Positions 27,550 to 56,601 of a DNA stretch of 64,000 bases are shown piece after piece. The position numbers were made by a program, and so were the translations under genes. The stretch is taken from assembly GCA_010356995.1 (NCBI GenBank), contig ML996689.1, positions 390,691 through 454,690 of the forward strand. Reading direction: 5' to 3'. Source of the stretch: Trichodelitschia bisporula (lineage: Eukaryota). Numbering within the stretch: position 1 is the first letter of the stretch; every line of letters begins with the position of its first letter. The notes under the pieces are model-generated. The model ran no database searches, had not been told where the DNA came from, and was given only the letters and a program-made list of their open reading frames with translations.

Positions 27550-27693
27550 GCGGACATATACCCGTAATCTGTACATTTAGACGGCCTGGAAATCATGTTC
27601 CCAATCGTCTTCTACGATGCTGCTGAACCAGTCTATTACATTATAGTCATCTCATCATAACCTATCCCAACCTGCTATTCCATGCCGATCCGC

Positions 27694-31243: not shown

Positions 31244-32280
31244 TTCCACCGTGGACGGCGGAATGCTGCGCACGATGCACGTTTCACTATGCGTCAGGTG
31301 GAGGCTCGCCATCGCGGTCTGTGGTTCTAGCACACGGTTCCATTACCCTGGCAGAACAGTGCTACAACGCGCTTTGCCGCGTATCTAACGTACTTGTATC
31401 GCACGAGACGGAGGCTACTCCGTTACTCCATGAGGATTTGTAACATGTTCCTGTGCTCCATTTGCGCCTATTCAGCAGGTAATTGCCGCTTCTGTTGAGC
31501 AAAGGATGAGCACAGTTTCTGATCATGATCCTGGCTTAGCATTTCCATGCGTTAGCTCGAAGAGCGAGGGCAACCATCTACGCGAGATGGCACAGCAGCT
31601 CGTAGCTGCGTGAATTCAAGAGTGGCGGACAATTGGATCCACCGTCAAGTCACGAGGAATTTGACGACCATCGGACCCGCCAGCTGTCGAGGACAAGAGG
31701 TCATGCCTCCGAGTGGCTAATTTCGACCGTTCCTTGACCGCTGTGCTCCCGACCTGCGTTTTGTGGAACCTCGCCTCATGCTGGACTCAACTCGGATTTC
31801 TTTTGGCAATTTTCGGAATTCGAAGAAGGATGTCGCTGTAGGCCGTCAACACGCGGAACGTTCTGCAACTAAGGCCTCTCTTTGCACAAGAGCAACTCTC
31901 GCTCTCGGCACGTCTTTGTCGCTTTGAAAGCTCGCGGGCTCAGTTCAGGGGTCGAGAAGGCATGGTTACACCACTTTAGTTCTGAAAAGCTATTCGATAG
32001 CCCGTGCAGTGCATGCTTTCCGGTGCTGGGATTCGCACATGCTGCTGCAGAGCGCCGCTGCAGGCACGTTACATACATGCGTCTATTTTTTATGGCCATG
32101 ATCTTGCTGCGGCATCGCGATAAAGCAGGCTGCCGATGATCTCGCTGGTGCAGCCTGCCAGTGCAGCAATTAGAGACCGCTATTTGGAATGCGTGCATTC
32201 TCCGCATGTATAAGTTATATCCGATATCATCTCCTTGCTCTCCCCATACTGGTGATTTTCTAAAGGCCGGTTAATTGACA

Positions 32281-33183
32281 ATGAAAGTGAACCCATTCCT
32301 CTGTTTAGGTCTTCTGCAGCTCGCGGCCTGTTTCCCACTGCAAGATGAATACCGCTCCGAGCCACATAAACGTCACTTGGAGGAAGGGCACAGCCCGGAC
32401 GCCCTGGACTTGTCGCCTGTCACGGAGTACGGCCTCCTACCATCAACTGGCATTAACCGATGGATCCCGGCAAGCAAGATCCCAAACGCCTCTCGCAGTC
32501 CTTGTCCTCTACTGAATACGTTAGCTAACCATGGATTTTTGTAAGCTGATACCGATATTCATGAGCACGACTGATATTTGCGAAGGAACCGCGATGGCCG
32601 ATCGCTGACAATGTATCATATCGATGCCGCGATCATGTCCGCAATGAATATGGACCTGAACACGACCCAGCTTTTTACTGCAAATTGTTTCACAGAACTC
32701 GGCCTCAGCACCACCGATCCGTCTGTGGCCATAGACCTTGAAGATCTCAATGCTCATGGCCTAACCGAGCATGATGCCAGTTTGACTCGGTTAGACAAGA
32801 TCCAGGGCGACACTCTTCGCCTTCAACCTCATATGCTGGACAACATGCTCAATGATGCGGGACCATCTCCTTTCCTCAACACAACCTCAATGGGACGCAC
32901 GCGGGCGCGGCGCGAGAGGGAATCTCTGGCAGCCGGAAGTCCTATACTCACCTCAAAAGCGCAGGGGAGTTGTATGATTGAGGCGGCTTTGGTGTTAGTC
33001 TTGCTTGGGGGGGGAGAGGGAGATGCGCGGGTCGCAAACAAGAGCACGGTGGCGGAATGGTTCGCATATGAAAGGCTTCCGGTTACATGGAGGAGGAGTC
33101 CGAAGGTGCTGACACTGGAATATGTAACCATACTGGAGAACAGGATAAAGTCATGGCGTGATCGGTGGTTGTCTGGCAGCTAG
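32281..33183 (+). CDS. Secreted heme-thiolate peroxidase (chloroperoxidase / short unspecific peroxygenase)
   Basis: Signal peptide, proximal-Cys motif RSPCPLLNTLANHGFL, EHDASLTRLD and ERLPVTW. Intron about 32541-32586. Confidence 0.88.
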
Positions 33184-33566
33184 CTGTTCTTCACGGCCAT
33201 GCCGGAGTTCGTATGAGAGCGAAGAACAGAAAGTTTGTATGAACTTGACCAAATATTGGAATAGGCTACAGTATTGCCTGTTCAAGCCCGATGCTGGAAG
33301 TTGGCGATGGTTTGAGGCAACGGACCAGTTACAGGCGAGGACCCTTGGGGTCCGCTTCCCCGTGATGAAGACGTCACCGGGCGCATTGAGCACTCCCTGG
33401 TCTGTTCCCTCAGCACAGGGACGCGGCCAAGGCTCAGCCACATGCTTGTGAGCAAACGGTATCACCAGCCCCCCGCCCGTCTCTCGACTTCCCTTCCCCA
33501 TATCTCCACACTCTCCCCACGAACTGCGTGGAATCCGTCTTCCTCGGTCTCGACGCATCCATCAGC

Positions 33567-34236
33567 ATGAAGCTCCTAACCCCCGTCCTCCCGCTTCTGT
33601 GCGTTACAGCCGTCGCCGCGCGCTCAGTATGGCTCGGCGGCTCCAGCAACGAGCAGGTTGCACTGGGCGACGAGCTCAAGGTTCCCGGTGTGAACCCGCT
33701 GTTCTACTGCTCTGATGCGTCCAACGACCTTCTGGTCATCGATCACGTCGACCTGTCCCCGAATCCTCCTGAAGCGTGAGTTCGCCCGTGCTTCGTCGGC
33801 TTATCAGCGACCCCCTCGCCCCCGCTTTGTGTTTCCACTAGCCCGTGCCTCATTATCCGTGGGCTAACAACTCCCAGTGGGCAGAGCCTTACTATCGCGG
33901 CCAAGGGCACGCTCCTGGAGGACATCGAAGAGGGTGCCAAAGTACACATTCAAGTCAAGTTCGGCCTCATCACCTTGATCAACCAAGACACGGATCTCTG
34001 CGACCAGGTCAAGAACGTAGACCTCGAGTGCCCGCTGGAGAAAGGCGAGACCGTGCTCACCAAGACGGTTGAGCTGCCGAGCAGAATACCTCCTGTACGT
34101 TACGCGTTGCTATATGATGCTGGGATGCTAATGCGCTGTACAGGGCCGCTACAGGGTCCTCGCCGACGTTTACACCAAGGATCGCGTCAAGATCACCTGC
34201 CTTACCGCAGAGGTTGTGTTCCATCCGCACCTATAG
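33567..34236 (+). CDS. npc2: Phosphatidylglycerol/phosphatidylinositol transfer protein (ML domain)
   Basis: Signal peptide, VPGVNPLFYC, VDLSPNPP, DLCDQVKNVDLECP and ITCLTAEV. Two introns. Confidence 0.9.
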
Positions 34237-35079
34237 ACAAATTGGTTAATGGGCCGCTGGGCATTGCGAGGGTGTACGATTAAGGATCTCGCCTGAGAGT
34301 CTCCGGACGATATCCTTCCGTTTGATGTTGCACTTAGTGTTTGGCATGGCGTACTTGGGACGATCACAAATTGACTTTCTACATATATCATAGTGTACAG
34401 GTTCATGAGCCGTATTGAACAGGTTACTGTTAGGACCACTTGCCCTGACTACGCTCCGACAAGTGATCTTCACTCGCCTCGTACACAGAATATCATGAGC
34501 CTGCAATGACTATTGAACACATACGGCCACAGATCGGAGAAAGCACCAGTACCCGTCTGCTCACTGAGGTTAAGCTCTGAATCGGTTGACTAGTAGTTGC
34601 GTGGGTGACCAGCAGCGAATCCCAACTGCTGTATGTTTTTGACTTTTTGCAGGATGAAGCTCATGTCGCCATGCCAGGCAAGGTCATTTCTTTTTCGACT
34701 TGGTATGCTATCCATTGGCGTTTAAGCTATCGAGACGACGAGGAGATGAATGACAGACGGAATATGGTACAAAGAAGCTGACAATAAAGACTCCAGGCTC
34801 CAAGAAATGAGGGCGAGCCTTGCAGTGCCGCAGTGCCGCAGTAAGCAAAACACAATGAATACCGCAACCCAGGCGCTGACGCATCTAGCGATTTCATCTT
34901 CCAATCATTAGGCTGCCAGGCTTCCCTTCCAGATATCCATCACTCCCCTCCTGATGAACCGCCTCCGGATGTCTTTCACGAGGTCCACCCCAGACATGTT
35001 AAACCTAGCCTGACGATACTCTTCAAGGAGATCCTGAACTCGACCTTCCATATAGCTCGGCTCATGTGCCCCCTCGACA

Positions 35080-36279
35080 TTATAGGCCCTTATCGCAGCT
35101 TGATAACGCGAGATCTGCTTTTTTGTCCTCAGTGAACACCTTAGACATCTCCAAGAACAAACTCACAGTATCGAGCAACGGCGCCTCCGACCTGAAATAC
35201 CCCGAATCCGAGCACACTTTCCACAGTACGGCGTCCTTGAACTCCTCCGGAAAAACCGGCGGGTCGGGCGGCGGCCGCCACCACGGCGCACGGTGAGCCT
35301 GGTGCCAGGCTTGTTCGGAAATGTACATTGGATCCTGCCCGTCCAGAGACGAGCCCTGCAGACTCTCCGGGCTGGGCGGGGGACTACGGGCTTCCCCACC
35401 GCGGAGGGGTGTCACGTCTCTGGCCCAAGGGATGAAGGGCGGTGGACTTTCAGTACGCTTTGGACGCGGGATTGGAATGGGAAATGATGTGTAGTTGTCA
35501 ACCGGGAAGGAGGAGGCCGTTCGTGGCCCCTTCGGCGTGGCGGGGGCAAAAGTCGTCTGCGCACGCCCGGGGGCAGTGTTCCAGCGCTTGAAGCAACGGC
35601 GGCGGCGTTGACGGCTATGAGTGCTGCGATTTGCTATAACAATTTGTTGGAGCGCGAGAAGGCATGCCTCCTCATGATACTGCGGCGGGGTCAAAGCTCG
35701 CATGGCCCATATCGGTCTTTCGGTCCTTCGACGACTTTTCGGCTGCGCTGAACTTTGATTGCTAGAGGCCCCACCCTCGTCAATGGCAGTGCCAGCCAAA
35801 GCTGTGTGTTTGTCTTTTGTGCCCGTGTTCAAGCCAAATTTGTTCAAGCTGTAGCCAGGAAGATCATCCAAGGTACGTCGCATCGGCTGAGGAATCCCGA
35901 CAGGGTTCTCGCCAGACACCACACTGTGGGCCCTCTCGCGGAACAGTAGAGACTCGTTGGACGCTTCCCGATGTGGATTGTCTCTAGGCCATCCATCGCG
36001 GGTATCCGAGTTGGTTGGCATATGGGAATCGTCCGCAGAGTCGCCAAATTCACCGAATTGCCAGTAGAGCTCCTTCACTGAAGCATCGGTCCAGCGCTTC
36101 CGTTGACCAACCCAATCGTGGAGCTCGCGAGGGTCTGACCGCTTCTTCTTCCCTGTACCGAAGACGTCAAGTGTGTTAGTGGGTTGAATGTCGTAACTTC
36201 CAGACTGAGTTCGACGCAGATGGCGGTGCTCCGCCTCGTCACTGGGTTGCAATTGCGTCTGATAATCTTTCGAGTCCAT
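35080..36279 (-). CDS. Hypothetical low-complexity protein
   Basis: About 400-codon open frame from MDSKDYQ with no recognisable motif. Both ends are uncertain. Confidence 0.45.
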   Translation of the reverse strand: MDSKDYQTQLQPSDEAEHRHLRRTQSGSYDIQPTNTLDVFGTGKKKRSDPRELHDWVGQRKRWTDASVKELYWQFGEFGDSADDSHMPTNSDTRDGWPRDNPHREASNESLLFRERAHSVVSGENPVGIPQPMRRTLDDLPGYSLNKFGLNTGTKDKHTALAGTAIDEGGASSNQSSAQPKSRRRTERPIWAMRALTPPQYHEEACLLALQQIVIANRSTHSRQRRRRCFKRWNTAPGRAQTTFAPATPKGPRTASSFPVDNYTSFPIPIPRPKRTESPPPFIPWARDVTPLRGGEARSPPPSPESLQGSSLDGQDPMYISEQAWHQAHRAPWWRPPPDPPVFPEEFKDAVLWKVCSDSGYFRSEAPLLDTVSLFLEMSKVFTEDKKADLALSSCDKGL

Positions 36280-36810
36280 GCTGCTCAGAGTAACAATGTA
36301 CGGTGTCTGATAAGCTGCGTGAAAGGTCGGGACAGATAGATATGAGATGAAATGGGCTCGAGGAGAAAATGTGGTTGTCAAAGGTCCTTGTGTAAGAAGA
36401 GTTACAGCTAGGGTTGCTCGTTCCTGCCCACCATAGCCCGACTTCTCGGGTTTGAATTGTGTATAGCGCCTGAGGTATGAGGACCCTGAAAGCAGGTACA
36501 TACGTATCTGAACGGCAAGATCAATCTAGTGAACGCAAGTAATGTGACCAAAGAGCCTGCCAAATGTTGGACCGGAGGCATGGAATAAAGTATATAACGC
36601 AAACTTCATCTCGTTTTCTTTGCTTCAAGGCCGCATTAAATCAGATGCTGTTGACGCTTATTCACAGACGAAGCAGATGGGGCGAAACTGGGGTGCTCAT
36701 TCCGGGGCCGCTTGAACATTGAAGAAGGCAACCTGCTAGCTTGGCGGCATGATGAATCCTCAGGTTGACGGGTATATTATGCAGCAACTTGGATATCTGA
36801 TGTGTCCCAC

Positions 36811-37318
36811 CTACTCTCCAAACAAGCGACGTACCCTCTTGAGCACACTATCCTTCTCGGGGTCATATGGGTGGTCTTTCGACGGAATCTCCAACACAGA
36901 GGGGAACGCTGCAGTGTAGGTGTCAACCCGATGTCGGATGCGGTCCGCGATCTAGTCCATCAGCGGTGTCCCTGCCGAGTTTACGTCCTTACGTGTTGGT
37001 TGATCAAGACAATGGCGATGTCTTTACGTTCGGTGGTGAAGCGGTCGAATGCGTGCTCAATGGCGGACGTCTCCGTCTTTTGGTCGACGACGAGGAAGTT
37101 CTTTTGCGAGTCGGGAGGCGAGGTAACATGCTGAGAGCTGTAAGCATATGCCGATAGGTGTAGAAGAAGCATATACGCCCACACCGGCCAGGAGCAAGCC
37201 TGTCACGGAGTCCTGGCTTGCGCATGAGCATGCGCCTTATGCGAGGAGGCTAGTCGGTTACCTCATCACCGATTACGGCGATGAATTGCCGGTCTTTAAA
37301 GGCAGCTGTGGTTGCCAT
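36811..37318 (-). CDS. VMA7: V-type ATPase subunit F
   Basis: [36 protein letters not shown] and [26 protein letters not shown]. Three short introns. Confidence 0.95.
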
Positions 37319-37655
37319 GGCAGTTCAACCCGCTTCAATGTCGCGGAATAGGCGTCGTACGCTGTGAGAGGGGCAGATGGAGCTTGAGACTAGCTATCTG
37401 GTGGCTCATCAGGAGCCTGGAGAGGCGGAGGTTCATGGGGAGATGGAAGATAGTTAATCCACCCGGCCTTTCACTCCGCGTGCGGACTGTTTGTTCTTTT
37501 GTTGACTGTGCTTGACCTCAGCTCCGTGCCAACAATGCCAGCACTTTGTTGAACACCAACCGCCAAAAAGACCGGGCTATCCCGCAGATATGGGCTGTTG
37601 GAATACCTTTCTATTTTCTCCCTGAAAGAATTGTCAAAACAGAGTCTCAGCCGCC

Positions 37656-40717: not shown

Positions 40718-42828
40718 ATGAACGCCCCAAAAATACATCAGGAGCCGGTCCCTCAAACTGCAAATATCGGCAACTCTCAAGACCATGATGAAAACTTCAC
40801 CAAAGAAGTGGAACCTCATAGTCACTTTCGGAATGCATTTCTGCGCAAGTACGGAACGGCCGATACCGACCTTGAGAGCAACTTCAAGAGAGCCGAGTCT
40901 GGAGCGTCAAAACTCTCCGTTGTCGGCGGACAAACTCATCGTTGGAGCGTGCTGTCAAGGTTGATAGTTGACTGGTGGCTTTGGGAGCTCTTGAGCTGGG
41001 TCATTGGCGCGCTTTCCTTTTGTGGGATCGCGCTCATTCTCGGCTATTTCGACAACCGGACTCTTTCCTCCAAAGGGCTCTTAGGCATAACGATCAATGC
41101 CTACATCTCAGTTCTTTCTGCTATTGGGAAATTCGCTCTTGCTGTACCGGTGGAGGAGGCATTGGGACAACTGAAGTGGTTATGGTTTTCGGCTGGACAA
41201 CCCCGGAAGCTCATCGACTTCGAGCGATTCGACGGCGCGAGCCGGGGTCCGTGGGGATCTTTCATGTTTCTTTTGCACATGAAAGGCCGGTAAGTTGACG
41301 GTGTGGAGCTTATGCTTGCTTTGAATAACATTTTCGAAGGTCCTTTGCCTCGCTAGGCGCGATTGTAACGTTGCTCTCACTTACCCTCGATCCCTTTTTC
41401 CAACAAGTGGTTACATTCCCGCAACGCCCGAGCATATACGGAAGGAGTATGCTGACACGGGTTGTGAGGTTCAACCCCATGGACGCCGTTACTCAGGATG
41501 CCACGGACCACAATACGACGATTATTTCTCCCGACGGTCGCTTGGACGAGGCTATTGGACCGTATTTCTTAGGTAATCCATCCGTGCCGCCGGTCAACAG
41601 CTTTTGTCCGTCAGGGACGTGTACGTGGCCCAAGTTCGATACTCTTGCATTGTGCGGAGCCTGCGAGGATATTGGAAACCTCCTTACTTTTGATTGTCTC
41701 TACGAATCCGGAGATTGGCGGTCCGATCAAAGTTCGTACCTCAACAGCTCTTATGGTGTTACGTGGGTCGACGCCAAGGGTAACCCTACCTCGAAAACAC
41801 CGGCAGGAATGTCCTGTGGCTATTTTCTTAATGCCACCAGCGACAATCCCATCATGATGACCGGGTATGCTCTTTCTTCAAACAATTCCGCCTCGAAGAC
41901 GGTCGGCCAAGGGCTGCTTATGCGTCAACTTCCACTCCGACATGGACTCTCAACGGAGACAAAATGGGGCGGGTCCATTCATTTTCCAAACACCAGTCAG
42001 CCCATAATCGATTTCATCACTGTTGCTACGGAAGACGGGACTTCAGTCTACGCCAACAAAACCCCAGTCGCCCACGAATGCATGCTGCAATGGTGCGTCA
42101 AAACTATTGCGGCCTCCTCTTCAAATGGGGAGTATAAGGAAGAAGTTGTTTCAACCTTCGTGGATGGCTCCGGGCCTCTGGATGGCTGGCATCCGTTCTT
42201 CAGAGATGGGATCGTCAGGCAACACTATTCCCTGAACGTCACCTTGACCCCGCCTGGTCAAAATGACACTTTCTGGGTCTCAAACTTGACCATGTTCCAG
42301 CAGATGGTCCTATTCAATCTTGCTCTCCCAAGCTACTTGACAGTGGATGATCCCTCCACTACTCCAATCCTTCGGTATTCCAACATCCTCCGGAACTATC
42401 CGGCCTTGAAGAAGACACCCAATGACCCGTGGCTGCCTCCCACCAACATTAGTCAACATTTTGAAAACATGGCCACGAGCATGGACCGAGCTCTGCGGTC
42501 ATATCCTAATACGACAGAGAAGGTTTTCGGCACTGGAAGTTTTGAGACGTACGTCCACATTCGATGGGCATGGCTCACCTTACCATTCATCGTCCTGCTT
42601 TTGAGCTCTTTGTTCCTTTTTGTAACTATCCTAGAGAGCTGTCGGCGGAGAGATGTGGGCATCTGGAAGACTTCTTCGTTGGCAACATTGGCATATGGGC
42701 TTTCGGATGATGCGAAGGACGAGCTTGGCTCGTCCCGGAGTATGCTGGAGCTGATAGAGAAGGCCAATGGGATGGAAGTGTCGGCCATGCCAGGGGAAAA
42801 TGCGAGGCTGACCCCAAAGTTTAAATGA
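40718..42828 (+). CDS. DUF3176-family membrane protein, paralog A
   Basis: WWLWELLS, EALGQLKWLWF, DFERFDGASRGPWGS, LDPFFQQ, CPSGTCTW and C-terminal TM with IWKTSSLATL. Phase-2 intron 41290-41339. Confidence 0.85.
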
Positions 42829-43924
42829 ATAGATCTACTTGTACCATATCTGGAGGCTTAATACTCAATATCACCATCATCATCAAGAAAGCACCTGAGA
42901 TAATGCCTACGGAGGTTCCTCTCGTGCTCTGCAAAAAAATTCAACTGGCTTTTTGTACACTCAGAGCGACGGATTTGGGACTCACAACGGACAAAAACAT
43001 GCGCAATCTACTGTACCCAAGACCAAATCCCTTTACGCAATGCAAAGATATAGAATGATTTGACTTTCGCACTGGAGAATACGATTGCAGACCCTGAAGA
43101 TCAAATCTTAATCCAACAGTTTCTCTTTGTTGGCGCGGCTCTTCTTGATTAACTTCCCACAATTGAAGATCGAGGACTCACGTGGTTGTGACTTCCACTT
43201 CAAGTACCGTATACGCGCGCATGAGCTGATCCCCACCTTCCTCCCAGCCTGCGCTGCCACGTGCTGCTTCATGAGCCGCAATGTTTCCGAACATCAACCT
43301 GAAACGCGAAACGACGGCCTGAAAAGGGCGGGACTTCCCTGTAACACGTATGACAGTTTGATGGATAGTCGTGTTGGATCGATCAGCGCTTAACGCGCAG
43401 CTGTCGGAAGGCGCCTGCTGGAAGCTGATTCGGCTTGCTGGCCAGTGCACCGCTGAGCCGCATCCGCTGCGCTTGGAACGTGATTTTCATTCGCCGAACG
43501 CGCCCAGGCTGCAGGGTAATTGTCCATAATTAGTGAGCCGACCTATTTCCTTTCCTGGCTGTTTTATGTTTCAAACGCCCACCTTCACTTGATCCGAATT
43601 CCGATGCATCATGCTCCATTGATAGAAATGCCCGGTAGGGCAGTGTGGGCCACCATGCGGTGCACTCCGTACATATGGCCCGAGCAATCGAAGGCGATTG
43701 ATGTGTAGTTGAGATTTTGGTCCTTTCCATCGGTTTTTCTTTCTCGGTTTTCATGGCATGGTGAGTACCTCGAAATCCCTCTGGCCAAGAGAGACAGTGA
43801 GTACTAACGCGAAGAACAGCCAATATTAATACTTTCTCCGCACTCTCATGATTTTTTCCTTGTCACCTGTAACCTGTTGGTCAGATTCATTAGTTCCCGC
43901 TCGTACATCCCCCTCAACCATTTC

Positions 43925-46145
43925 ATGTCGACCGGTGTGAACGACGGATCTGGGTTCCAACCTACCGTCGGCCGTTATGCAGGACATAACGGTCCCTATC
44001 TTCAGACTACTCCTCAGCTCCCCCGTCTTCCACCTCTCCCAGTCCCTCAGGAGCCAGCTCTCACGTTGAGCCGACACCATCTGTTCGGACCGACTCGGGA
44101 GAGGCTTGCCGTTCCCGCCCCCGATCATGCAACGACCCTGCCACCTCCCAGTTCCCCACATTACCGACAGCAAGGATGGCCGGCCCGGGAATTCCAGTTC
44201 TTGGGCAACACTACCAATGCTATTCCCTATTCCCAGCGTTACAATCCGGTTTCGAGCCCCCCCCCGCGATCGACTCGGTTGGTGCAGGGCATCCGACGGT
44301 TCGTCATCAAGTACATCGTGGAATGGTGGTTGTTGGAAATCCTCAGCTGGATTTTCAGTGCGCTATGCATGAGTGCCATTTTTGGCGTCTTGTTGTACTA
44401 TGCTGGGCGCAAGATTCCCAATTGGCCGCTTGGTATTACAATCAATGGCTTCATTTCCGTCTTTTCAGGTCTTGCGAAGGCCGCTTTGTTACTGCCGACA
44501 GCAGAGGCCTTGGGTCAACTGAAATGGAATTGGTTTCGTGACGGCAAGAGACCCATGATTGATTTTGAAAGAATCGACATGGCAAGCAGAGGACCGTGGG
44601 GTGCCTTCATTCTCCTGGGGCGGATGAGAGGAATGTACGTATCCGGCTCTGACACCATAGGCCCGGTTGAAGTGCTGACCTCTGATTTTGAATAGGACTC
44701 TCCCCTCGATTGGCGCCGCCATCGTGCTCCTGGCCCCTCCGCTAGACATTTTCTTCCAACAAATGGTGTCATACCCATCAGCGTTCGTTCCGGGGCCTAC
44801 CAATGGCACGATCTCTCGAGTCCTCGCGTATGATCCTCTAGATGGAGTGAACTTCAGGAACGGCGTCAAAAAAATCCTTCCGCCTCGAGACTACTCCTTC
44901 GCGGAACAACTGCTCTTCACCAACGGCAGCGCTTTGGAGCCGAATTTCAATTGCCCAACAAGCAACTGCACCTGGGAGCCATTCGAGACCCTAGGTGTTT
45001 GCAGCAAATGCGCCGACGTATCCCAGGACGTGTACTTTCGATGTCAAAATGGAACCGGGGAGTGGATGAGCAACGTTTCATCCACGGATCCGTATCCAAA
45101 TGTGGCAATGTGTGGATACTTTCTGAACCTTCCGAAAAGCCCACCAGTGTTTCTCAGTGGCTACGCTGTTGACGCCAGTGGAAAGCCGGGAGAGGCTATG
45201 TCCACACAGATCCTGTCGTTCTCCAACACATCCTCGCGGCTCCCGCTGTATGGAGGATCCATGCGCTTCAAGTATGTCCGGAGTCCAATCTGGGATCTGC
45301 TAGTGTCAGGGACGCCTGGAGGGATTGCTGGTGCGTATGGGGCCGTAAAGCCAGAAGTGAATGAATGCATATTCTACTTCTGCGCAAAAACGGTCCAATC
45401 CGGAGCGTACTGGGGACGCCTGAGTGAGAATGTCGCTAAAGAAGTTCCCTTGGATGCTTCGGAACCATATCCATGGATCGTCGTGGATCCAGTAAAGAAT
45501 CTTGTGCGATACCTGGCCGAATTTAACTTGGAACTTCCTTCGCATGGAGACCAAGCAGCGCTCCAGAACAACACGTTTTTCGTCTCCAACCTGACGGCTG
45601 TGAAAACTGCCTTGCTCATCGATGAAATTGCACCTTCTTATGTCACTGCACTGAACGCGTCAGTAGCCCCGCTTCTGAAGTACGACAATGCCTTAAGGTT
45701 TGGAGGATCTCTCATTGAGGCCAACCCACAAACCAATCCTTGGATGCCGCCGAACAACATTACCGCACATGCCGAACGCCTGGCCGCGACTTTAACATCG
45801 ACCTTTCGGAACACAAGAGAAGGAGAGGGTGATGTGGAAATGGTGTTGGGGATTGCCTGGGAAGAGAAAACGTTCATCAGCTTCAGATGGGTTTGGTTCA
45901 TCATGCCTGTTGCGCTGTTATTTTTTAGTCTCATATTCCTTGTCGCAACGGTCATTCGGAGCTCTCGGGATGAACCAGATGTCGGGATTTTGAAAACTTC
46001 GACAATAGCCGTTCTTTTCAATGGACTGGGCAAGGATGTGCAGGAAGAAGTGAGACCGAATTGTCCGATAAGTGAAGTGAAGGCTCGGGCCCGGGAATTG
46101 AAGGTGACATTGCGGGCTTCAGGAATTTCGACGCCGGGGCTCTAG
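43925..46145 (+). CDS. DUF3176-family membrane protein, paralog B
   Basis: WWLLEILS, EALGQLKWNWF, DFERIDMASRGPWGA, LDIFFQQ, CPTSNCTW and C-terminal TM with ILKTSTIAVL. Phase-2 intron 44635-44695 at the same position as in paralog A. Confidence 0.85.
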
Positions 46146-46830
46146 GCGCTTGTTGTGTGTAGAGTGCAGGGTGGCAGCCATATTTTTGACTTTAGACATT
46201 AGAGCGGAGTATCCGGGCTCTTCAGGCGAGGTACACGGTTTGGGTCATGGGCAGGCTCGACGGAGAGCTCTGGATAGTTAATAATTATGACTGATGAATG
46301 ATGAACGAGAATTGGGATCACACAAGTTAGCTTTTTCGGACAAAGTGATCATGGTAGAATGACATACCTCATGACATGGGAGTAAAACACCTTCGCAATC
46401 CACATCGTGATTGCGAATGAAGACGCAAAGCAAGGCAGCGCACGGAACTAGGTCACGCTTGGGATCAGTAGAAGCAGAACGAGGCAGCTGGAAGCTGGGA
46501 TTGCCGGCAATGTTGGTGAGCCAGGTTTCACTTCCGGAACAGAACGTGGACGTTTGGGACGAAGGCGTGATGAATTCCCAGAACCCAATCCTATCGTACA
46601 AAAGACTCCAAAAACGGCCTTGTAGTCCCGAGTGAAGAAATCTGCTACCCGATCGAGGGCGGAGAAGGTGATGGAAAAGGAATAGGAAGCCAATTAACGG
46701 GCGTGGAAGCCGGCTCAGCACACTACGAATACGCGTTCTGTCAAAGATTAGTAAGAGGTACGGCGCATCGGCAATAGGGGGTCAGGCATACCTCTCTTTC
46801 AGCCTCAATTGCACCCCATCGTTGAGCATC

Positions 46831-47776
46831 TCATTCCTGATCAAGCGCTCTTTTACCGACTAGAGGCAGGTTAGCGCACAGAATTCGAAGGGCACGGCGG
46901 CAACTGACATCCTTGACCATCCTGACCCTGAGCAAGACCACGCTTCCCGACTTGGGGTCCCGTTAGCATCGGACATTCCGAGGGGCTGGAAACTCGCTTA
47001 CAGCCTTGCCCATCTTGCCCCTGTGCAAGTGAGCGCTTTCCGACTAGGAGCGCCGTTAGCATCAGAAACTTGGAGGGGCTGGAACCTGCTTACAGCCTTG
47101 ACCATCTTGACCCTGAGCAAGACCACGCTTCCCGACTTGGATCCCGTTAGCACCAGACATGTCGAGGGGCTGGAACTTGCTTACAGCCCTGACCATCTTG
47201 ACCTTGAGCAAGACCACGCTTCCCGACTTGGGTCCCATTAGCACCAGACATGTCGAGGGGCCGGAACTTGCTTACAGCCTTGACCATCTTGACCTTGAGC
47301 AAGACCCCGCTTCCCAACTTCGGGCGCCGTTAGCATCATGGAGCCGAAGGGCTGAAACCTCGCTTACAGCCTTGACCATCTTGACCTTGATCAAGACCTC
47401 GCTTCCCGACTTTGGGTCCCATTAGCAACAGACATTTCGAAGGCTGGAAAGTCACTTACAGCCTTGTCCATCTTGCCCCTGCGTAAGAGAGCGCTTCCCA
47501 ACTGAAGCATCCCGTTAACGTTGAGCACTATAATGGCCTCGATAGCCTACAGCCTTGACCGTCCTGCCCTTGGGCTAGACCCCGCTTCTCCCCTGAGACT
47601 CTGGTCAGTGTCCTCCATTAAGAGGGATAATGGGACGGCCTACAGGATATACCATTATCGGGGTTAGAAAGGAGATCCCGCGTAACGACGGGGGCGATGG
47701 TACTTGGGACCGGAGCCGCAAAAGCGGAGGATGCAAAAAACGCGGAAAGAACGACAACAACAGCTGAGAAGCGCAT
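46831..47776 (-). CDS. Secreted Kex2-processed repeat protein (KEP; peptide precursor), 165 aa, 10 exons
   Basis: Exons: 47776-47644, 47592-47551, 47501-47460, 47409-47368, 47317-47276, 47226-47185, 47135-47094, 47043-47002, 46950-46909, 46859-46831. All nine introns are 49-51 nt GT...AG with a branch-like site. Spliced product: MRFSAVVVVLSAFFASSAFAAPVPSTIAPVVTRDLLSNPDNGISWEKR-([G/S]L[A/T/D]QGQDGQGFGKR)x8-ALDQE*. Confidence 0.88.
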
Positions 47777-49637
47777 ATTGATAGTGAGAAATGGAGCACA
47801 GTAAGTTTTTCAAAGTTCAATGAATGTGGAGGTCCGACCAGCGGCTGTATCAAGTTCTAGCTTGAGGATGAGTTGATAGGCGAGTAAATTGCTTGCTCTT
47901 GGATAGTCTAGACACAGAAGCGGTACCTTGAAAGTTTATACCTTCAATTCCATGGTGTTGGTAGCCCACACGCCGGCCCAGGAGAATCACCGCATGGAGA
48001 AAACATCGATCTGACTCCAAAAACAGCATCACCTGCTTCATCAACCGCTCGCCTGCACTCATGATGCAATCCTTCCTACCACAGCGTCTACATACACCAC
48101 TTCAGATTCGCCGGTGGACCTGTCACTGTCTCTCCACGCGCGTCCAGTCGGGTAACCACCAGCGATAGCCGCCAGAGGAGTCAACGCCGCGTCGAAGAGC
48201 CGCAAGAATCGACTCCGTACGTGGAGGCGTAGCACCATCCGCCGCACTAGACGCCGTGGAGAACACGGCACCTCTCCGGAAGACCAGAAAACGGCTCTTA
48301 GGGCTGCACTTATTCGCCGCCATGCATCGAGACTCGCCGCTCGAAACGGCCGCCGCCGGTTACGCAAGGCTCGATGCCCATTCGGGAGGGGGATCATTGG
48401 GCGAGGGGCATTGGGACGCGTCAATGTGAAATGAGAGTGATGTCTTGCTCGGGTGTACCGTACGTGCGATGTGCTCCACCCCGGTAACAGGCTAGGTTCG
48501 GGTGTTCCTTGCAGTAGGCGTCGTGAGCAACGGCGCTTATTGGCATGATTTGCATAGCGGCTGCAGAAGTGTGGCCTCAGTGGGCATGCAGCAGTCTGCG
48601 GACCCAACCCCGCATACCCCGGTCACCCGCTGAACGCTCGCGCATGAACACCAGGGCCAGGTCCGAAGGTAGGGATCTGGACGGGCAGCGTCCAAGAACT
48701 GCAGAGGACATGGAGGGGGTTGAAACTCTTAGTTGATTATGATCCTGGATTCCATGTTCGGCTGGTCGTGTGCACTGGTGTTTGGGAACCTCTCATGTGA
48801 TGGTTACAGTGGAAGTGGAAGCCATAGGTGCAAGCGCAGCCGGTGGCGGTGCGTTAGGTTCAATTTTCCCGCTGGGGCTGCACTTCGGGAAAGCCTTCAA
48901 GCCATGGCTTGCCTTGAGCATCTGGAATTCCATAGAGCCGAGCGCGACGCGCCGTGCGGGGTTATCACTTTTCGTTCGTGGGGGCAGCCGACAGTCGCAC
49001 ATACATCCAAACTTCGTAGAGCCAATACAGCCGAAAAGGACCTACTCGTCTCTAGTTAGCCGAAGGATATTGTAAGGGGAATGGCACTCAGAGAGCAGCA
49101 ATTGGACTGGGAGTGGTGAGGAGTGGTGAGAAGTTCAGTCAGTCGTGGTTTGATTAAGGGAAGGGGGGGTCTCATCCCATCCAATCACCAGGCGCGGGAC
49201 CCTTGGCTTGGCTGCAACTTCCCGCCGCCCGCAGCGCGCGGGTCTACCTCGTCAACCAACGAGATGCGCCACAAGGCTTTGGGCGAGAATGCTCCAATGG
49301 ACAAGGCCAAATCCCTCTAAGGACTGGATGGAATGCGTACCACCATCGCAAGTATACCCTCTTCGCGCATGAAGGATACACTGTAGCTCTAGTCATATGA
49401 CGCTAATCGCGAAATCCGTGAATAGATTGTGTCGGCTGTTCTGTGTGAAGCAGGCCTGATTCACCCGGCTGTTTGGCAGAGAGTGGCCCGACGCGATCCG
49501 AGTTTGAAACGAGACTCTCTTTTCAGCGAGAGCCTTGCTGCTTGCTGGGTAACACAGCAGCAGCGTCTTTTTTTCTTGCAGTGCCGCATCCTGTGCCTGC
49601 ATTGTGTGACTTCTTCACGCCTTTCGTGAGGTTGACC

Positions 49638-50162
49638 ATGTCATCCGGAGTCATCGCAACACCCGGCATCTTTGGCTTCCCCCGTTGGAAACACAAGAAA
49701 CCGGCCACCCTCAAACCCGCCACTCGACTTCCGCCAAAAGACGAGGTTGGTCTGACGCTTTGCCGCCACCCAGCGTGCTGCCAGTTATTCGACCCCGCAT
49801 CGCCCGCAAACGTCGACTTCTACGCGCACTCGACACACGGGCATCTGCCGCCGCGGCACCTGTGCCCGGCGCACGCCTTGCTCGCGCAGGACCGTGCCGC
49901 GAGCGCACACATCAGCCGGAGCAGCATCGCCAGCTCGAGCACAGAGGACAGTGTGGGAGACGAAGGCGGCGGCGAGGTCGCCTGCAACATGCCCTTCTAC
50001 TTCAGGCCAGTGGAAGCAGATGTGCGGTGGCGGACCGCGCGATCCGCAAGCTCGGTGGCCAGCGTGCGCGGCGATGCACCCAGCGCGATGCGCGAGAGTG
50101 ATGGTGGAGGCATGAGCGCGGGGCCCGTGAAGCGCACGGCCAGCCTCGCCAATCCGCCGTGA
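49638..50162 (+). CDS. Small hypothetical protein with possible Cys/His metal-binding motif
   Basis: ORF from MSSGVIATPG with coding-like GC3 bias. Contains CRHPACC...HLCPAH. Confidence 0.4.
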   Translation: MSSGVIATPGIFGFPRWKHKKPATLKPATRLPPKDEVGLTLCRHPACCQLFDPASPANVDFYAHSTHGHLPPRHLCPAHALLAQDRAASAHISRSSIASSSTEDSVGDEGGGEVACNMPFYFRPVEADVRWRTARSASSVASVRGDAPSAMRESDGGGMSAGPVKRTASLANPP

Positions 50163-51172
50163 CACCTCCCTCCGCACCATGGCGGGTACGAAGGTACCTA
50201 CGCGACGGAGGATCGCCGACGCTTGTGACCCCGCATCCTTCGGGCGTGCCCGCGATGGAGAGCAGAGCTTTCACCACCGGCGGAGAGAAAGACCGTCAAC
50301 CGCGGGGTTGCGGGGTACTTCTCCCTTTTGTGTGCATATCGGACCATCGACACCAATCGCTCTCAAGGCAGATTTCTGGTCGCCGGGGGGAGAGCTTCTG
50401 CGACAGTACCTGGTCGACAGCATTATGCTGGTGCGTAGGGCCTGGATCCGAACGCCATCGCGTCATTATCATGCCGAAGCAAGACAGCATAGTCGAGCTG
50501 CGAAGCTTTGTCCACTTCTGCTGCTTATGGTGGGGTTCTGATGGTCGGGTGGTGGTGTAGCGGTACGAGCTGAGTACGGAATTAGGCGCTGGGAAATGAA
50601 CTCGGCGGTTTCGAGACATTGAGCGTGACGCCGGAGGGGGTCGGCCGTGAGCGGGGACAGGCGGGGACGACGGGGGAACAGGCGGCTGGATAGAGCTAAC
50701 AATCAGTCGCTTGAACAATACAATAATCAAAGCATTCAGGGCTAGGACCAAGGGACAGGTTCATCTCACACTTTGATTGTTCTTCGAGCGCAAAGTACGC
50801 GCAAACCCCTCCTTCATCCCTCACTGCTGCATATTGCCCATGATGTCATGTGACTTAAGCGCTGACAACAACTGACCGAATCATTGATCGAACCATGCAA
50901 GGACCATCACCCGTCATTCTCAAGTTCGAAAGCTCTTGTTCATGAACTCTGTTGAAGTGGTCCATGAGACCGAAAGAGCAGTGCTCAAATGCATCCTGAT
51001 GGGTATCCCCTCTATATATTGACCACCAGGCCTCCAGCCCTACGGCTGCATGCACAGCCATTCCAAAAATACGATTTCTACAACGCATCGCGGTATGGAT
51101 CTCGGACAATGCCTCACCGTCTGCTGCGGCGGACATATCTGCCTAAACCATAGCCTACTCCGTTCTTGCGGT

Positions 51173-52909
51173 TCAGTTGGCCCCGCTGTTCTTCTTCGCC
51201 TTTACCAGCCATGCCAGAAGGTCGACCTTCGTAACCACGGCAACAGCCTTCAGGGCTCCACCAGCCTCCTGCTCTGTGACAACCGCTGCGCTGTTCCACT
51301 CGAAGAACCGGCTCAGCGCGCTAAGCGGAGTGTCACGCGTGATCTCGACGAACTTTCTCCGCTTCGGCCGCGCCGCATTATCCGTGAGCACCGATGAGAT
51401 TTCCTGGCCCTTGGGAGCGACAAGCCCAATGCTCGTAGGGTCCGTCACCTTTTCCGACAGCCGCGTGAAGTCAAACATAACGCTGCTGACTGGGTCGCTG
51501 GGATTGGCCCGACCCCTGCTGATGTAGCTGAGCAAGTTGCCGAGCGTAACAAGCCCGACGAGCTTTTGGGACGGCGAAGACACCGGCAGCTGGTCAAAGC
51601 CCTTGTCACGCATGGTTTCGATGGCTTCAGAGCAGGGCGAGGTCGAGGAAATGGTGGTGACGGGCTTGAGGCGGAGCGACGCAATGGTGGCGCCAGCGAA
51701 CGGATCCTTGGGCCGCAGGGTCGGCGAAGACGGCTCCGTAGGCGTGTCGGGGAGGCTTGCCGGGAGGAGGTCGTTTGCAGCCAGCCAGTCGTCGTCCACG
51801 AACTGCCTTGGTTAGCGGGCGACCGTAGACAGACAATACACTGACCTTGCTCAGGTAATTCCGGATGCTGTCAGGGCAAACGATAACCACGACATCACCC
51901 TTACCCAGTCCCAGGTCCTTCACCGCCTTCACCATCGCCGCAAAGGCGCTGCCGCTGCTTCCGCCAACAAGCAGACCCTCTTCAGAGATCAGCCTCCGGG
52001 CGTATGTAAACGACTCCCGGTCATCGGTCTTGTACCACTTGTCTACGACCTTCTGCTCAAGGACCTCCGGAATGAAATCGTAGCCAATGCCTTCGACCTT
52101 ATAGGCTTCATTTTCGTGCTCTTTGTTCAGGGATTCTGGAACTGCGAGAATGCTCCCCTGCGGATCAGCGGCTATAATCTTGATGTTCGGATTATGTTTC
52201 CGCAGTCCTTTGGCAATTCCGGTCACCGTGCCACCAGTCCCAGCTCCCGCAACGAGCACATTGACTTTGCCGCCGGTTTGCTCCCAGATTTCTTCTGCCG
52301 TACCTAGCTCGTGTGCAAGCGGATTGTTGGGATTGGCATACTGGTCCAGGATGTGGGCATTGGGAAGTTCCTTCTCGAGACGTCTCGCAACGCCAATATG
52401 TGATTCCGGAGCGTCATAAGCCGCGGCGGTGGGGGTACGGATGATCTCGGCGTTAAGAGCACGCAGGACCGCAACCTTTTCAGCAGACATCTTCTCAGGA
52501 AGTGTGATGATCATCCTGTAGCCTGAACTGTCAGCGTGAGCGGCAATACAAGGCCATGTCTAAGCTACCTTTCACGGCGGCTACAAGCGCCATGCCGATC
52601 CCTCTGCTTGACGTTAGATGTGTTCGGTGCCGGAGACTCATATGCCTACGTGTTCCCGCTCGTCGGCTCGATCAAGGTGTCGCCGGGCTTTATTCTGCCT
52701 TCCTTCTCGGCCTCTTCGATCATGCGGAGAGCAATGCGGTCTTTCACGCTGCCACCGGCATTGAACAGCTCGAGTTTGGCATAGACAGTCGCCTCAATGC
52801 CTAAGCTCTGCGGCAGCTTGTTCAGCCGAACCATGGGCGTGTTGCCGATTTGCTCGAGGATGGACTGCATGAGTACGGGAGGGATTGCGGGACGCGTTTT
52901 AGAAGCCAT
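51173..52909 (-). CDS. CYS4: Cystathionine beta-synthase
   Basis: [13 protein letters not shown]-lysine motif [26 protein letters not shown] and EGIGYDFIP, followed by a C-terminal CBS pair ([15 protein letters not shown]). Three introns. Confidence 0.95.
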
Positions 52910-53404
52910 GATGAAAGACGGCAATAATGGCAACGGGTTGTTCTCGTCCGTCTACTTGCACAATCACAAACTTGCTGGTCAAAATAGGTTGAAGAAGTCC
53001 ACGGTACGGAGGGGCGAACTGGTAGTCGTCTTTTGAAGTCGGCCGGCTGTGGCTTGACGTGATGTGAGCGGGTGGCGTACTAGCGACAGGGCACAGGGCT
53101 CAGCCGCTGAACCGTTCACCTTGTCCGAGGGTACCCGCTTCCGTTTTTGGAACTTTTTGCCTGACCCGTGACCCTAGCTCAAATGTGGAGTGATTCAGGC
53201 AAGCAGGCATCACATCCGAACTGAGCGGCCGGCATCAAGGCATACATCAGGCAGAAACCCACGTTTTCCGGCGTCGCATCTAGGGGACCGGGGGATGCGC
53301 ATTGTACGCGTCGCCGGCGTCCAAAATCGCCGCAACCCATTCCCTGCGAATATCAGCTTCTACATCCTTCAGCGCTTCGCAGCGTGTCCACTCTTTCAGT
53401 AGCA

Positions 53405-56400
53405 ATGGCGCGGCTCGGGCGCCTGGGCTTCCTCGCCATTGCCGTTGTCTTCCATCTCATCTATGTCTACTCCATCTTTGACATCTACTTTGTGAGCCCC
53501 ATCGTGAGGGGGATGCGCGAGCACAGTGTTGCGACCGCAGAGGCTCCAGCGAAACGGTTGGTGTTATATGTTGGTCAGTAGCTTAGCGCATCAAATGACA
53601 ACTCAGTCCGAATAATTGTCCTGATTGAACTGTGCAGGAGATGGCCTCCGCGCCGACAAGGCCTTCCAGTCCTTCCCTGACCCGTCACCCGCCGAGAATG
53701 ACCCCGATGCGCCCACTCCCCGACCGCTGATGCCCTTTCTGCGCTCAAAGGTGCTCCGTGAGGGGACTTTTGGCGTGTCTCATACCCGTGTACCTACCGA
53801 ATCTCGGCCGGGCCATGTCGCGCTCATTGCCGGTCTCTACGAGGACGTCTCTGCTGTCACCACCGGCTGGAAGCTGAACCCTGTCAACTTCGATAGCGTG
53901 TTCAATCGCAGCCGACATACATGGAGCTGGGGAAGCCCGGATATCCTGCCTATGTTCCAGCAGGGTGCGGTGCCGGGCCGGGTGGATGCGTACACATATG
54001 GCCACGAGGCGGAGGACTTTACCGCCGACGCAGTCGATCTTGACATCTGGGTTTTTGACCACGTAAAGGCCCTCTTCGAAAGCGCAAAGACCAACGCCAC
54101 GCTGGATGCCGCACTTCGCGAGGACAAAGTTGTGTTCTTCCTCCACCTACTGGGACTGGACACTACCGGCCATTCATATCGGCCCTACTCGAAAGAGTAC
54201 CTCCACAACATCAAAATCGTGGATAAGGGGGTTCAGGAAATAACCGAGCTCATGGAAGAGTTCTATGGCGATGGGAAAACGGCATATGTGTTCACTGCGG
54301 ACCACGGCATGAGCGACTGGGGAAGCCATGGGGACGGCCATCCAGACAACACGCGCACGCCATTGATAGCATGGGGCTCCGGAGTTGCTCCTCCAGTTAC
54401 AAAGTCCAGGGGTATCGCGGCGGGGCACGAAGATGGGTTTTCTGCTGACTGGGGCCTTGACCATGTCCAGAGGAATGACGTTGCACAAGCCGACGTTGCG
54501 GCGCTTATGGCGTATCTCGCTGGGCTTGCGTTCCCAGTCAACTCTGTCGGAGAGCTGCCACTGGCCTACCTTGCAGCTACTTCGAAAGCAAAGGCCGAGG
54601 CGCTGCTTGTCAATGCCCGTGGGATGCTTGAGATGTACCACGTGAAGGAAGAGCAGAAGAAAAGCACTGAGCTCCGGTATAGGCCGTACCCAGGCTTCGC
54701 GGATGAACAGAATTCCGTCGAGCATCGCATTGCGCAGATCGAGAAGTTGGTCAAGAAGAGCCGTTCGAAGGAGGCCATCGCGCAATGCAATGAGCTCATT
54801 CAGCTCACGCTCCAGGGGCTCCGGTACCTCCAGACATATGATTGGTTGTTCCTCCGGGCGCTGGTTACGGCGGGCTTTTTGGGATGGATAGCCTATGCCA
54901 TCACTACCGTCGCCGACCTTCACGTGCTTCATGGGACGGCCGCCCCCCAGCGGAGCCTTTTCAGCAACATCTTTTTCTCTTCAATTCTTGTGGCACTGTA
55001 CTCGCTGCTCTATGTTCAGCAATCGTCGTGGACGTACTACGCCTATGCCATCTTCCCAGTGTTCTTCTGGGAAGAGGTTTTTGTTCGCCGCGGCGCCCTG
55101 AAGCAAGGAAAAGATGTACTTTTTGGCCATGTTACTTCGGTCGGTGGCTACATTGGGATGATATTCAAGGCATTGGCGTTTCTGGGCCTGCTCGAGGCAT
55201 TGGTAAGCGATGAGCGCACTGGTTAGCATATGCTGATGTCGTCCAGGTTCAAAGCTACCATCATCGGGAAGTCTACACAGTGTGCTATCTCCTCGCGATC
55301 ATGTGGCCGGCGCTTTATGGGATGAACTTCGTCAAGGAGAACAAGCTCCTCATACTCGCATGGAGCCTCTCCTGCGCTTCTATGAGCGTGTTCACTCTCC
55401 TGCCCGCCTTAAAGGTGGAGGACTTGAACATGGTGTAAGCACGGTGCATCTTCGCATTGCTAAATACTAATATATCCAGGCTCGTTGGTGGCGGCTTGAT
55501 GTTCGCTGTTGGAGTCCTCTACCTCATCTTCGAAGAGAGCATCGTGCAACAAGCGAGGTCTGCCAGTGTGGCGGGTACTTCCACCCTCATGACTCCCTAC
55601 TCTTCCACGATTGTCGGCATTCAGGTACGTCTTTTTGCATCGCATGAATCGCGCTTACAAATTAGCTCGGCCTAATAATCCTGGCCATGATCACGACCCA
55701 CTCGAGCATCACGTCCCTCCAAGCACGACAGGGTCTCCCACTCGGCACGCAAATCGTCGGATGGGCCGTCCTCGTCTTATCCCTGGCGGTGCCCTTCCTC
55801 CACGGCCTGGACCCGAACAAACACTATCTCCACCGCCTGCTCGTCATCTTCCTCGCCTTTGCACCTATTTTCATCATCCTCACCATCTCCTACGAGGGCC
55901 TCTTCTACTTCGCCTACTGCATCACCCTCCTCACCTGGGTACGCCTCGAGCACCACATCTACACCTACACCTCCACATCGAAGCCCTCCCCCTCACCGCC
56001 AACTGCCGAGCTAAACCCGCTCAAGCCCGCCCTCGCCGCCGCAAAATCGCGTATTGAGAACATCAAAGAAAACAAGTTCCGCGCCCTCACCCTCACCGAC
56101 GCACGCATCAGTCTTTTCTCCTTCTTCCTCCTACAATCCGCCTTCTTCAGCACCGGCAACATCGCCTCCATCTCCTCCTTCTCCCTCGACGCCGTCTACC
56201 GGCTCATCCCCATTTTCGACCCTTTCGCACAGGGCGCGTTGCTAATGTTTAAGATCCTCGTCCCCTTCGCTGTGCTCAGCGCTAACCTCGGCATCCTGAA
56301 TCGGCGCCTCGGCGTCGCGCCTTCCGCGCTGTTCATGATCCTCATGGCCGTGGGCGATGTGATGACGATATCGTTTTTCTGGATGGTGCGCGATGAGGGC

Positions 56401-56601
56401 AGTTGGCTCGACATTGGGACGAGTATTAGTCACTTTTGCATTGCCAGTGGGTTGTGTGTGTTTGTTGCGGGGTTGGAGGTTGTGAGCGAGGTGTTTGTTA
56501 GTGGGGTAGAGTTTGAGGAGGCAAAAACGGAGGTTGAGGAAAAGGGTGGGCACGACAAAGTTCATAATGGGTCGGTGGACGTGGATGAGGTGAAGACCTA
56601 G
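53405..56601 (+). CDS. MCD4: GPI ethanolamine phosphate transferase 1 (PIG-N)
   Basis: SIFDIYFVSP, VGDGLRADK, RVPTESRPGHVA, LHLLGLDTTGH, FTADHGM, GLRYLQTYDW, FSTGNIASISSF and EGSWLDIGTSISHF. Four introns. Confidence 0.95.

Follow-up and report, generated by a model that had tools for sequence, protein, structure and literature searches.

A repeat-peptide gene convergent with paired DUF3176 membrane protein genes in Dothideomycete fungi

A 64,000-nt stretch of the Trichodelitschia bisporula genome (assembly GCA_010356995.1, contig ML996689.1, positions 390,691 to 454,690), hereafter the window, carries two tandem genes for membrane proteins of the DUF3176 family, here called A and B, and, facing them from the opposite strand, a gene for a Kex2-processed repeat protein (KEP). 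A preliminary description of the window had proposed that the three genes form a functional unit, starting from two diverged DUF3176 paralogues with a shared phase-2 intron and a convergent KEP gene about 690 bp away from stop to stop. The paralogues and their intron are borne out by sequence, Pfam and RNA splice joints, and the measured distance between the stops of B and the KEP gene is 686 bp (Table 1). Exon 1 of A and of B matches PF11374 (DUF3176), with E values of 1.5e-25 (89.9 bits) and 1.2e-26 (93.5 bits), respectively, against a gathering cut-off of 27 bits, the region tested being that from transmembrane helix 2 (TM2) to TM3; whole B reaches 8.5e-32 (110 bits). The match is confined to the last ~85 residues of exon 1 in both genes, and the products of exon 2 (~490 aa) have no Pfam match. 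Between A and B, the membrane core shows 53% identity and exon 2 shows 31%; their introns lie at the equivalent place. The spliced model of B is identical over 719 residues to an annotated T. bisporula protein (P0003).

Table 1. Features of the window, with the repeat units of KEP arrays found beside DUF3176 genes at other loci
Feature	Position	Strand	Details
DUF3176 paralogue A	40718..42828	+	coding sequence 40718-41289 + 41340-42828, 686 aa; phase-2 intron 41290-41339 (50 nt)
5' untranslated-region intron of B	43760..43818	+	59 nt; joint 43759>43819, GT..AG (cut +1), both RNA runs
DUF3176 paralogue B	43925..46145	+	coding sequence 43925-44634 + 44696-46145, 719 aa; phase-2 intron 44635-44695 (61 nt)
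Convergent spacer, B stop to KEP stop	46146..46830	.	685 nt
KEP gene	46831..47776	-	ATG 47776, stop 46833-46831; 10 exons (133, 8 x 42, 29 nt); 165-aa precursor
KEP repeat array	46909..47592	-	91-nt unit = 42-nt exon + 49-51-nt phase-1 intron
L001 repeat unit		opposite to DUF3176	QEFFDNDVG-KR with spacers
L002 repeat unit		opposite to DUF3176	GLQRGGGGGS-KR
L003 repeat unit		opposite to DUF3176	GLSRGGGGGS-KR
L004 repeat unit		opposite to DUF3176	[SA][AP]QDNEDEVWGVG-RR
L021 repeat unit		opposite to DUF3176	EAIPLRYGNGH-KR
L029 repeat unit		opposite to DUF3176	22 residues ending GGY-KR
L046 repeat unit		opposite to DUF3176	QGGVELVGDFGPVNK-KR
Multi-thioredoxin PDI-like protein	24208-26076	-	Pfam
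Family-2 (heme-thiolate) peroxidase	32575-33180	+	Pfam
PIG-N GPI-anchor enzyme	53625-56598	+	Pfam

The KEP gene shows the features by which such genes are recognized: it is small, it encodes an N-terminal signal peptide (judged by eye from the hydrophobic N-terminus), and, where three or more near-identical cores flanked by KR or RR are required, it carries eight. The precursor runs from the signal peptide through a pro-region ending in WEKR to eight cores and a five-residue tail; each core has 12 residues, [GS]L[ATD]QGQDGQGFG, and is followed by KR. There is one intron per repeat, which splits the codon preceding G-K-R and has a GTAAGC or GTAAGT donor, a GCTAAY branch site and an AG acceptor, and Tandem Repeats Finder (TRF) reports the array as a period of 91 in 6.5 copies. 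Splicing the gene in our script leaves an open frame of 165 codons.

Transcript evidence came from contigs of two public runs of one sample, whose type, 'RNA?', is a guess; we took them as RNA because the contigs are spliced. A, B and the KEP gene are all transcribed. Both DUF3176 introns are confirmed by spliced contigs of the two runs, the joint in A skipping 50 nt between GT and AG. For the KEP gene, eight of the nine introns were seen, as minus-strand joints of 49–51 nt that bound exons of 41–42 nt; the ninth (46860–46908) is predicted and has no RNA joint, and positions 46532–46815 show neither joint nor cover. A GTATAT donor for KEP exon 1 was ruled out by the RNA, which places the donor at a GTAGGC 15 nt downstream. 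In one contig of run X2, position 46950 is joined to 47185 with 234 nt missing between them; either repeat exons were skipped or the assembler collapsed the repeats. Between A and B, at about 42830–43900, lies a spliced minus-strand transcript with GT..AG introns at 43107–43181 (75 nt, read in one run) and 43509–43582 (74 nt). It contains no signal-peptide or KR-repeat frame, so the idea of a second KEP gene at this place was rejected; with no convincing open frame, the transcript may be non-coding or come from a gene in decay.

The exon-per-repeat design recurs outside the window. At another locus (L004, described below), the KEP gene (11854–12701, minus strand) has seven predicted phase-1 introns of 50–55 nt and repeat exons of 45 nt, and encodes an open precursor of 161 residues. 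Its introns split the codon before G-[KR]-R, in the same phase and position as in the window, and in both arrays the unit of duplication is an exon plus an intron. Genes of this design are easily mis-annotated, and the word 'intron' is absent from the available text of two published KEP surveys.

To place the locus in a wider setting, we aligned exon 2 of B with 28 relatives and scanned metagenome contigs of the Joint Genome Institute with the resulting pattern. The scan gave 367 pattern-matching stretches, 111 of which encode a relative, and the best 80 loci (495,918 bp in total) were kept. These contain 13 strong tandem arrays (TRF period of at least 24, at least 2.5 copies and a score of at least 150), and 7 of the 13 begin less than 1 kb downstream of the 3' end of a DUF3176 gene, a zone that makes up 36,666 of the 495,918 bp (7.4%; binomial P = 1.4e-5). 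All seven lie on the opposite strand, and each encodes a signal peptide and, after it, repeats delimited by KR or RR (Table 1). None of the six arrays outside the zone is a KEP, and no KEP array was found elsewhere in the 496 kb of fetched fungal DNA. Genome size was taken as 30–40 Mb. At a mean of ~5.3 KEPs per fungal strain, as stated in the text of a published survey (PMC7329392), roughly 0.07 KEP genes would fall within 496 kb by chance alone. Set beside the other loci, the adjacency is more than chance. Synteny of KEP and DUF3176 genes in homologous loci was a test that the preliminary description had named, and it came out in favour of the link.

KEP loci were read by eye, as a protein-space detector missed several arrays and TRF at a low threshold returned mostly noise. 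Reading revealed an eighth array, at L010, with IIRGNQN cores that are too diverged for TRF, and a degenerate KEP at L009, where a signal-peptide gene at the equivalent place retains two decayed units, of which one contains a TGA in frame. The distance from stop to stop is 95–479 bp in L001, L002, L003, L021, L029 and L046, and by manual reading about 420 bp in L004 and about 380–395 bp in L010. In L002 (2760/2856) and L003 (1883/1978) the two stops are 95–96 bp apart, so the 3' ends of the convergent transcripts must overlap.

Lineages were counted from the last DUF3176 copy with readable downstream DNA, and loci were merged when their DUF3176 copies were near-identical in the tree or their flanks were identical (L002/L003, L005/L006, L012/L013, L017/L018 and L007/L046; L046 overlaps L007, with identical downstream text). 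Left out were incomplete loci (L011, L020, L023 and L028), loci in which a further copy comes after the matched one and extends past the contig end (L015/L016, L019 and L022), and distant clades or partial matches (L024–L080 except L029 and L046). On this count, 9 of 14 lineages have a convergent KEP: the window, L001, L007/L046, L004, L009 (degenerate), L002/L003, L010, L021 and L029. Distant clades with enough flanking DNA have no KEP at this place (L024–L027, which carry an F-box-like gene instead, L030, L032/L034 and L035).

L004 and L009 likewise have the order A, B, convergent KEP, and other tandem DUF3176 arrays occur in L008, L014, L016, L018, L019 and L022. In a tree from a quick maximum-likelihood search, the upstream copies of the window, L004 and L009 form one clade (support 98), and window B groups with the downstream copies of L004 and L009 and with L001, L007, L012, Venturia and two Verruconis proteins. 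Copies adjacent to a KEP are found both in the B clade and in a large clade sister to A (L002/L003, L010 and L021), which implies that the link either is older than the split between A and B or persisted on each side of that split. The DUF3176 intron is kept, at 50–73 nt, in the A and B clades; it is absent from the large clade sister to A (L002 at 22–2760, L005, L006, L008b, L010 and L017), and the L002 gene is a single frame of 912 codons. The surroundings have been rearranged: a gene for a thioredoxin-domain protein resembling protein disulfide isomerase (PDI), at 24.2–27.5 kb in the window and 78% identical to an L004 gene in the best segment, is found in the window 13 kb upstream of A, in L004 3–6 kb beyond the KEP, and in L001 likewise beyond the KEP. 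The DUF3176–KEP unit therefore survives local rearrangement.

Named genomes were compared as well. The B-clade protein PV09_03060 of Verruconis gallopava is KIW05857.1, and the preceding accession, KIW05856.1, is a KEP; consecutive accessions suggest that the two genes are neighbours. Table S2 of PMC7329392 lists six KEPs in V. gallopava, including KIW05856.1, which it classes as 'type 0', stand-alone, with no DUF3328 nearby. Microthyrium microscopicum has two genes of the subfamily, KAF2673192.1 and KAF2673194.1, two accessions apart with a single gene between them; the data of PMC7329392 do not include Microthyrium or four further genera that we checked. In Venturia inaequalis (proteins P0019, P0202 and P0203), the locus tags EG328_011876 and EG328_011877 are consecutive and fall in one 90% cluster, and a 1282-aa model from another strain resembles two tandem genes fused by annotation.

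The peptides themselves differ greatly between lineages. KEP N-termini of different loci share a signal peptide that ends in an AAPVP-like motif, and the cores differ completely: they are acidic or neutral, rich in Gly, Gln and Asn and lack Cys, and no Tyr, Trp or Cys is common to all (the window core has none of the three). A homology search with the L001 KEP gave no match at E <= 0.01 among 4456 candidates. Judged from their N-termini and position, the KEPs beside DUF3176 genes are one family whose cores have changed beyond recognition.

The DUF3176 family is far larger than the set examined here: a phmmer search against 1.84 billion representatives returned 7225 clusters at E <= 0.001, and 671 at E <= 1e-30. 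PF11374 is matched by 54 of 64 aligned relatives. An AlphaFold2 model of full-length B, built from 64 sequences (mean pLDDT 82.1), comprises a disordered N-terminus (residues 1–111), a four-helix membrane bundle, a beta-rich domain (262–634) and a last helix (635–661). Hydropathy and the model thus agree with the preliminary description in placing a loop rich in Cys and in N-x-S/T sequons between the first hydrophobic segments and the last transmembrane helix. Four membrane helices are given by both, and no Pfam seven-transmembrane (7TM) domain is matched in DUF3176 proteins. The loop, or ectodomain, spans ~373 aa with 8 Cys and 9–11 sequons (10 in B), and the cytosolic side of TM1 is flanked by basic residues; these features fit a loop that is predicted to be extracytosolic.

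Folded alone, the ectodomain of B gave a pLDDT of 93.7 and a pTM of 0.92. Compared with solved structures, its best VIA score was Z 3.2, with 0 of 48,161 chains at Z >= 5, and Foldseek returned no match at E <= 0.001 (template-modelling score at most 0.12), so the modelled ectodomain appears to have no solved relative. Matches of the full-length model were rejected, the VIA rows (Z up to 11.4) as generic four-helix bundles and the Foldseek rows (herpesvirus gB and similar, template-modelling score about 0.07) as meaningless. In the ESM Atlas, the ectodomain retrieved only unnamed ascomycete clusters. Whole B retrieved a DUF3433 cluster (template-modelling scores of 0.48/0.53 over 468 residues) that the ectodomain alone did not, and PF11915 (DUF3433) has no match at E <= 1 in 64 family members; the modelled resemblance is a lead only. 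A further Atlas lead, CLZ1_N, is carried by 10–29% of cluster members and was dropped.

Conservation is uneven along the protein. Mean identity of the family to B is 54% in the TM2–TM3 core, 50% in TM4 and 30% in the ectodomain, which suggests that the ectodomain evolves faster than the membrane and cytosolic core. The motif LGQLKW..DFE.FD.ASRGPWG and a VGIWKTS tail are conserved, and the ectodomain contains a nearly invariant Glu-Cys pair and an Arg. One relative of 1175 aa (P0166) has Zn(2)-Cys(6) and Fungal_trans domains ahead of DUF3176; this is a transcription factor tethered to the membrane, or else the gene model is a merger. The available part of a preprint on membrane-bound transcription regulators suggests that membrane-tethered factors exist among Fusarium proteins.

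Among the other genes of the window (Table 1, which includes an enzyme for glycosylphosphatidylinositol (GPI) anchors), only the PDI-like gene recurs near the DUF3176–KEP unit at other loci. The preliminary description had noted the absence of DUF3328, tyrosinase and pheromone receptor genes nearby. In agreement, none of these, nor any other 7TM receptor, was found among the 26 open reading frames (ORFs) of at least 110 aa in window intervals 22000–37600 and 47900–56000, and DUF3328 was likewise absent from 20 ORFs flanking L001–L004 and L009, in a scan that may miss shorter or heavily split genes. Further tandem arrays lie at 10486–10798 (52 nt x 6.0) and 4690–4793 (33 nt x 3.2).

Because the convergent adjacency has been kept through rearrangement and deep divergence, and is confined to one subfamily, the DUF3176 pair and the KEP gene probably work together as a functional module, conserved in Dothideomycete fungi. 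The interpretation in the preliminary description is thus partly supported: its functional unit is backed by the 9 of 14 lineages that keep the adjacency in rearranged surroundings, and its two roles for the DUF3176 pair stay proposals. Within such a module, we favour DUF3176 as a cell-surface sensor or receptor for the KEP peptides, a reading to which we give a probability of about 40%. In this model, the precursor would enter the secretory pathway, where a Kex2-type protease would cut after each KR and trimming would free eight copies of a linear, unmodified 12-mer rich in Gly and Gln. The DUF3176 proteins would be four-helix membrane glycoproteins that hold a disulfide-bonded, beta-rich ectodomain in the same compartment as the peptide, with A and B possibly acting as a heteromer. 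Binding of the lineage-specific peptide would fall to the fast-evolving ectodomain, and the conserved membrane core, together with the LGQLKW..DFE.FD.ASRGPWG and VGIWKTS motifs, would relay the signal. Binding or sensing is favoured over an enzymatic role because the cores share no modifiable residue, and because the ectodomain evolves fast while the membrane and cytosolic motifs are conserved. A bolder form of the idea, which on present evidence is rather doubtful, is that the subfamily is a new class of fungal peptide receptor, made of A/B heteromers with an ectodomain fold new to the PDB, co-diversifying with its linked peptide and serving lineage-specific signalling of self or kind, distinct from the pheromone G-protein-coupled receptors (GPCRs). 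Nothing supports in particular the peptide-gated channel that had also been suggested.

Several observations weigh against a sensor. Five of the 14 lineages have an intact DUF3176 gene and no adjoining KEP: nothing recognizable follows in L005/L006, an unrelated convergent gene follows in L012/L013, and the place of the KEP is taken by an RTA1-family gene in L014 (Pfam E 1.4e-28) and by an RTA1-like gene, identified by eye, in L008 and L017/L018. So either the pairing is optional, or the KEP was relocated in these lineages. The 7225 clusters of the family and its distant clades without a KEP mean that the fold must have a more general role, and among 64 members Pfam recognizes no signalling domain. 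Convergent genes share no promoter, and the expression data, being contigs from one sample, can neither rank nor correlate the genes. The independence of the metagenomic lineages is judged by sequence divergence only. In Verruconis, the adjacency rests on accession numbers rather than coordinates, and for another Verruconis gene (KIW04791.1) and one from Pyrenochaeta (OAL53943.1), Table S2 of PMC7329392 lists no accession-adjacent KEP.

The conserved adjacency that suggests a sensor would be explained equally by DUF3176 proteins that act on the peptide inside the secretory pathway, in maturation, modification, sorting or export, in the manner of DUF3328. The ectodomain would then face the lumen that the precursor traverses, its near-invariant Glu-Cys pair and Arg could be catalytic, and the paired paralogues recall the two to five DUF3328 genes of known clusters, as described in the text of PMC7329392. 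However, the cores have no residue in common that an enzyme could target, one of them being GLQRGGGGGS, which makes a DUF3328-like enzyme less favoured; conservation is strongest in the membrane and cytosolic core rather than in the lumenal domain; the structure searches (best VIA Z 3.2 over 48,161 chains, no Foldseek match at E <= 0.001) revealed no enzyme fold; and the scanned neighbouring ORFs include no DUF3328 or tyrosinase gene. We therefore regard such a role as unlikely. Protection of the producer from its own antimicrobial or self-harming peptides is highly improbable: producer and immunity genes are typically linked, and the cores evolve fast in the fashion of an arms race, but their acidic or neutral, Cys-free, Gly/Gln/Asn-rich composition is unlike that of cationic or amphipathic antimicrobial peptides, and lineages without a KEP keep DUF3176 intact.

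The adjacency might also persist with no molecular contact between the products, if the genes share a developmental programme or a chromatin domain, or simply offer a small target for rearrangement. With spacers of 95–686 bp, the 3' ends probably overlap and breakpoints may be harmful; moreover, the family far exceeds its KEP-neighboured members, and the five lineages that lost the pairing kept DUF3176. Yet the pair has been kept across copies only 31–38% identical to B, while a gene 3–13 kb away switched sides, and no KEP array lies elsewhere in the 496 kb of fetched DNA, in fungi that average ~5.3 KEPs per strain (PMC7329392). Linkage of this kind seems to us rather doubtful, and a sensor or receptor for the peptide remains the reading that we prefer.

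To our knowledge, no function has been assigned to DUF3176, a large family of ascomycetes. Across the literature searched, 'DUF3176' occurred in one unrelated work only, the preprint on membrane-bound transcription regulators mentioned above; the term is absent from the text and three supplement files of PMC7329392, in a search that did not extend to Figure 6 of that paper (Pfam profiles near KEPs) or to supplements of bioRxiv preprints. A conserved genomic partner is thus a first testable lead for the family. It also bears on the KEPs themselves: according to the text of PMC7329392, 74% lack both a DUF3328 neighbour and a pheromone annotation, and 2560 count as 'stand-alone'. The module shows that orphans of this sort can constitute a family, recognized by synteny and N-terminus although its cores have diverged past detection. 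The design with one intron per repeat is a blind spot of annotation, and mining of proteomes for KEPs can miss such genes because of it. In filamentous fungi, the question of peptide ligands and receptors other than those of mating is still open, and a linked pair of ligand and sensor, if true, would make it directly testable.

Among known systems, the module resembles the clusters for ustiloxin, asperipin-2a and phomopsin, which belong to the RiPPs (peptides made on ribosomes and modified after translation) and combine a KEP with DUF3328 (UstYa) proteins; both have a precursor with a signal peptide and tandem cores separated by KR, and both have paralogous membrane proteins that face the lumen or, in the module, are predicted to. 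DUF3328 neighbours accompany 22% of 7878 KEPs in the text of PMC7329392. Unlike in these clusters, where a DUF3328 gene is expected within about 10 kb of the precursor gene, the partner in the module is DUF3176, with four predicted transmembrane helices and a 373-aa ectodomain that appears to have no solved relative; a conserved Tyr is missing from the cores, and a tyrosinase gene from the ORFs scanned nearby; and the genes are strictly convergent, with one intron per KEP repeat. As proposed here, the module also recalls precursors of the alpha-factor type and their receptor Ste2, in that a multi-copy linear peptide would be released by Kex2 and perceived by a membrane receptor; in basidiomycetes, pheromone and receptor genes are adjacent and co-diversify. 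However, the partner has four predicted transmembrane helices and is not a 7TM GPCR, and the cores have neither a pheromone signature nor Ste13 dipeptides. KEPs annotated as pheromones in the available survey data (PMC7329392) differ from the type found in the module, the Verruconis member being listed as 'type 0, stand-alone'. A further comparison is with the allorecognition pair cwr-1/cwr-2 of Neurospora crassa, as described in the available part of a preprint (10.1101/2025.01.17.633681). CWR-1 is a chitin monooxygenase, whereas the secreted product of the module is a repeat peptide, and CWR-2 has eight transmembrane helices and two DUF3433 domains, in contrast to the DUF3176 proteins. In both cases, adjacent genes encode a secreted product and a multi-pass DUF membrane protein, and in CWR-2 it is the large, variable extracellular domains that set specificity.

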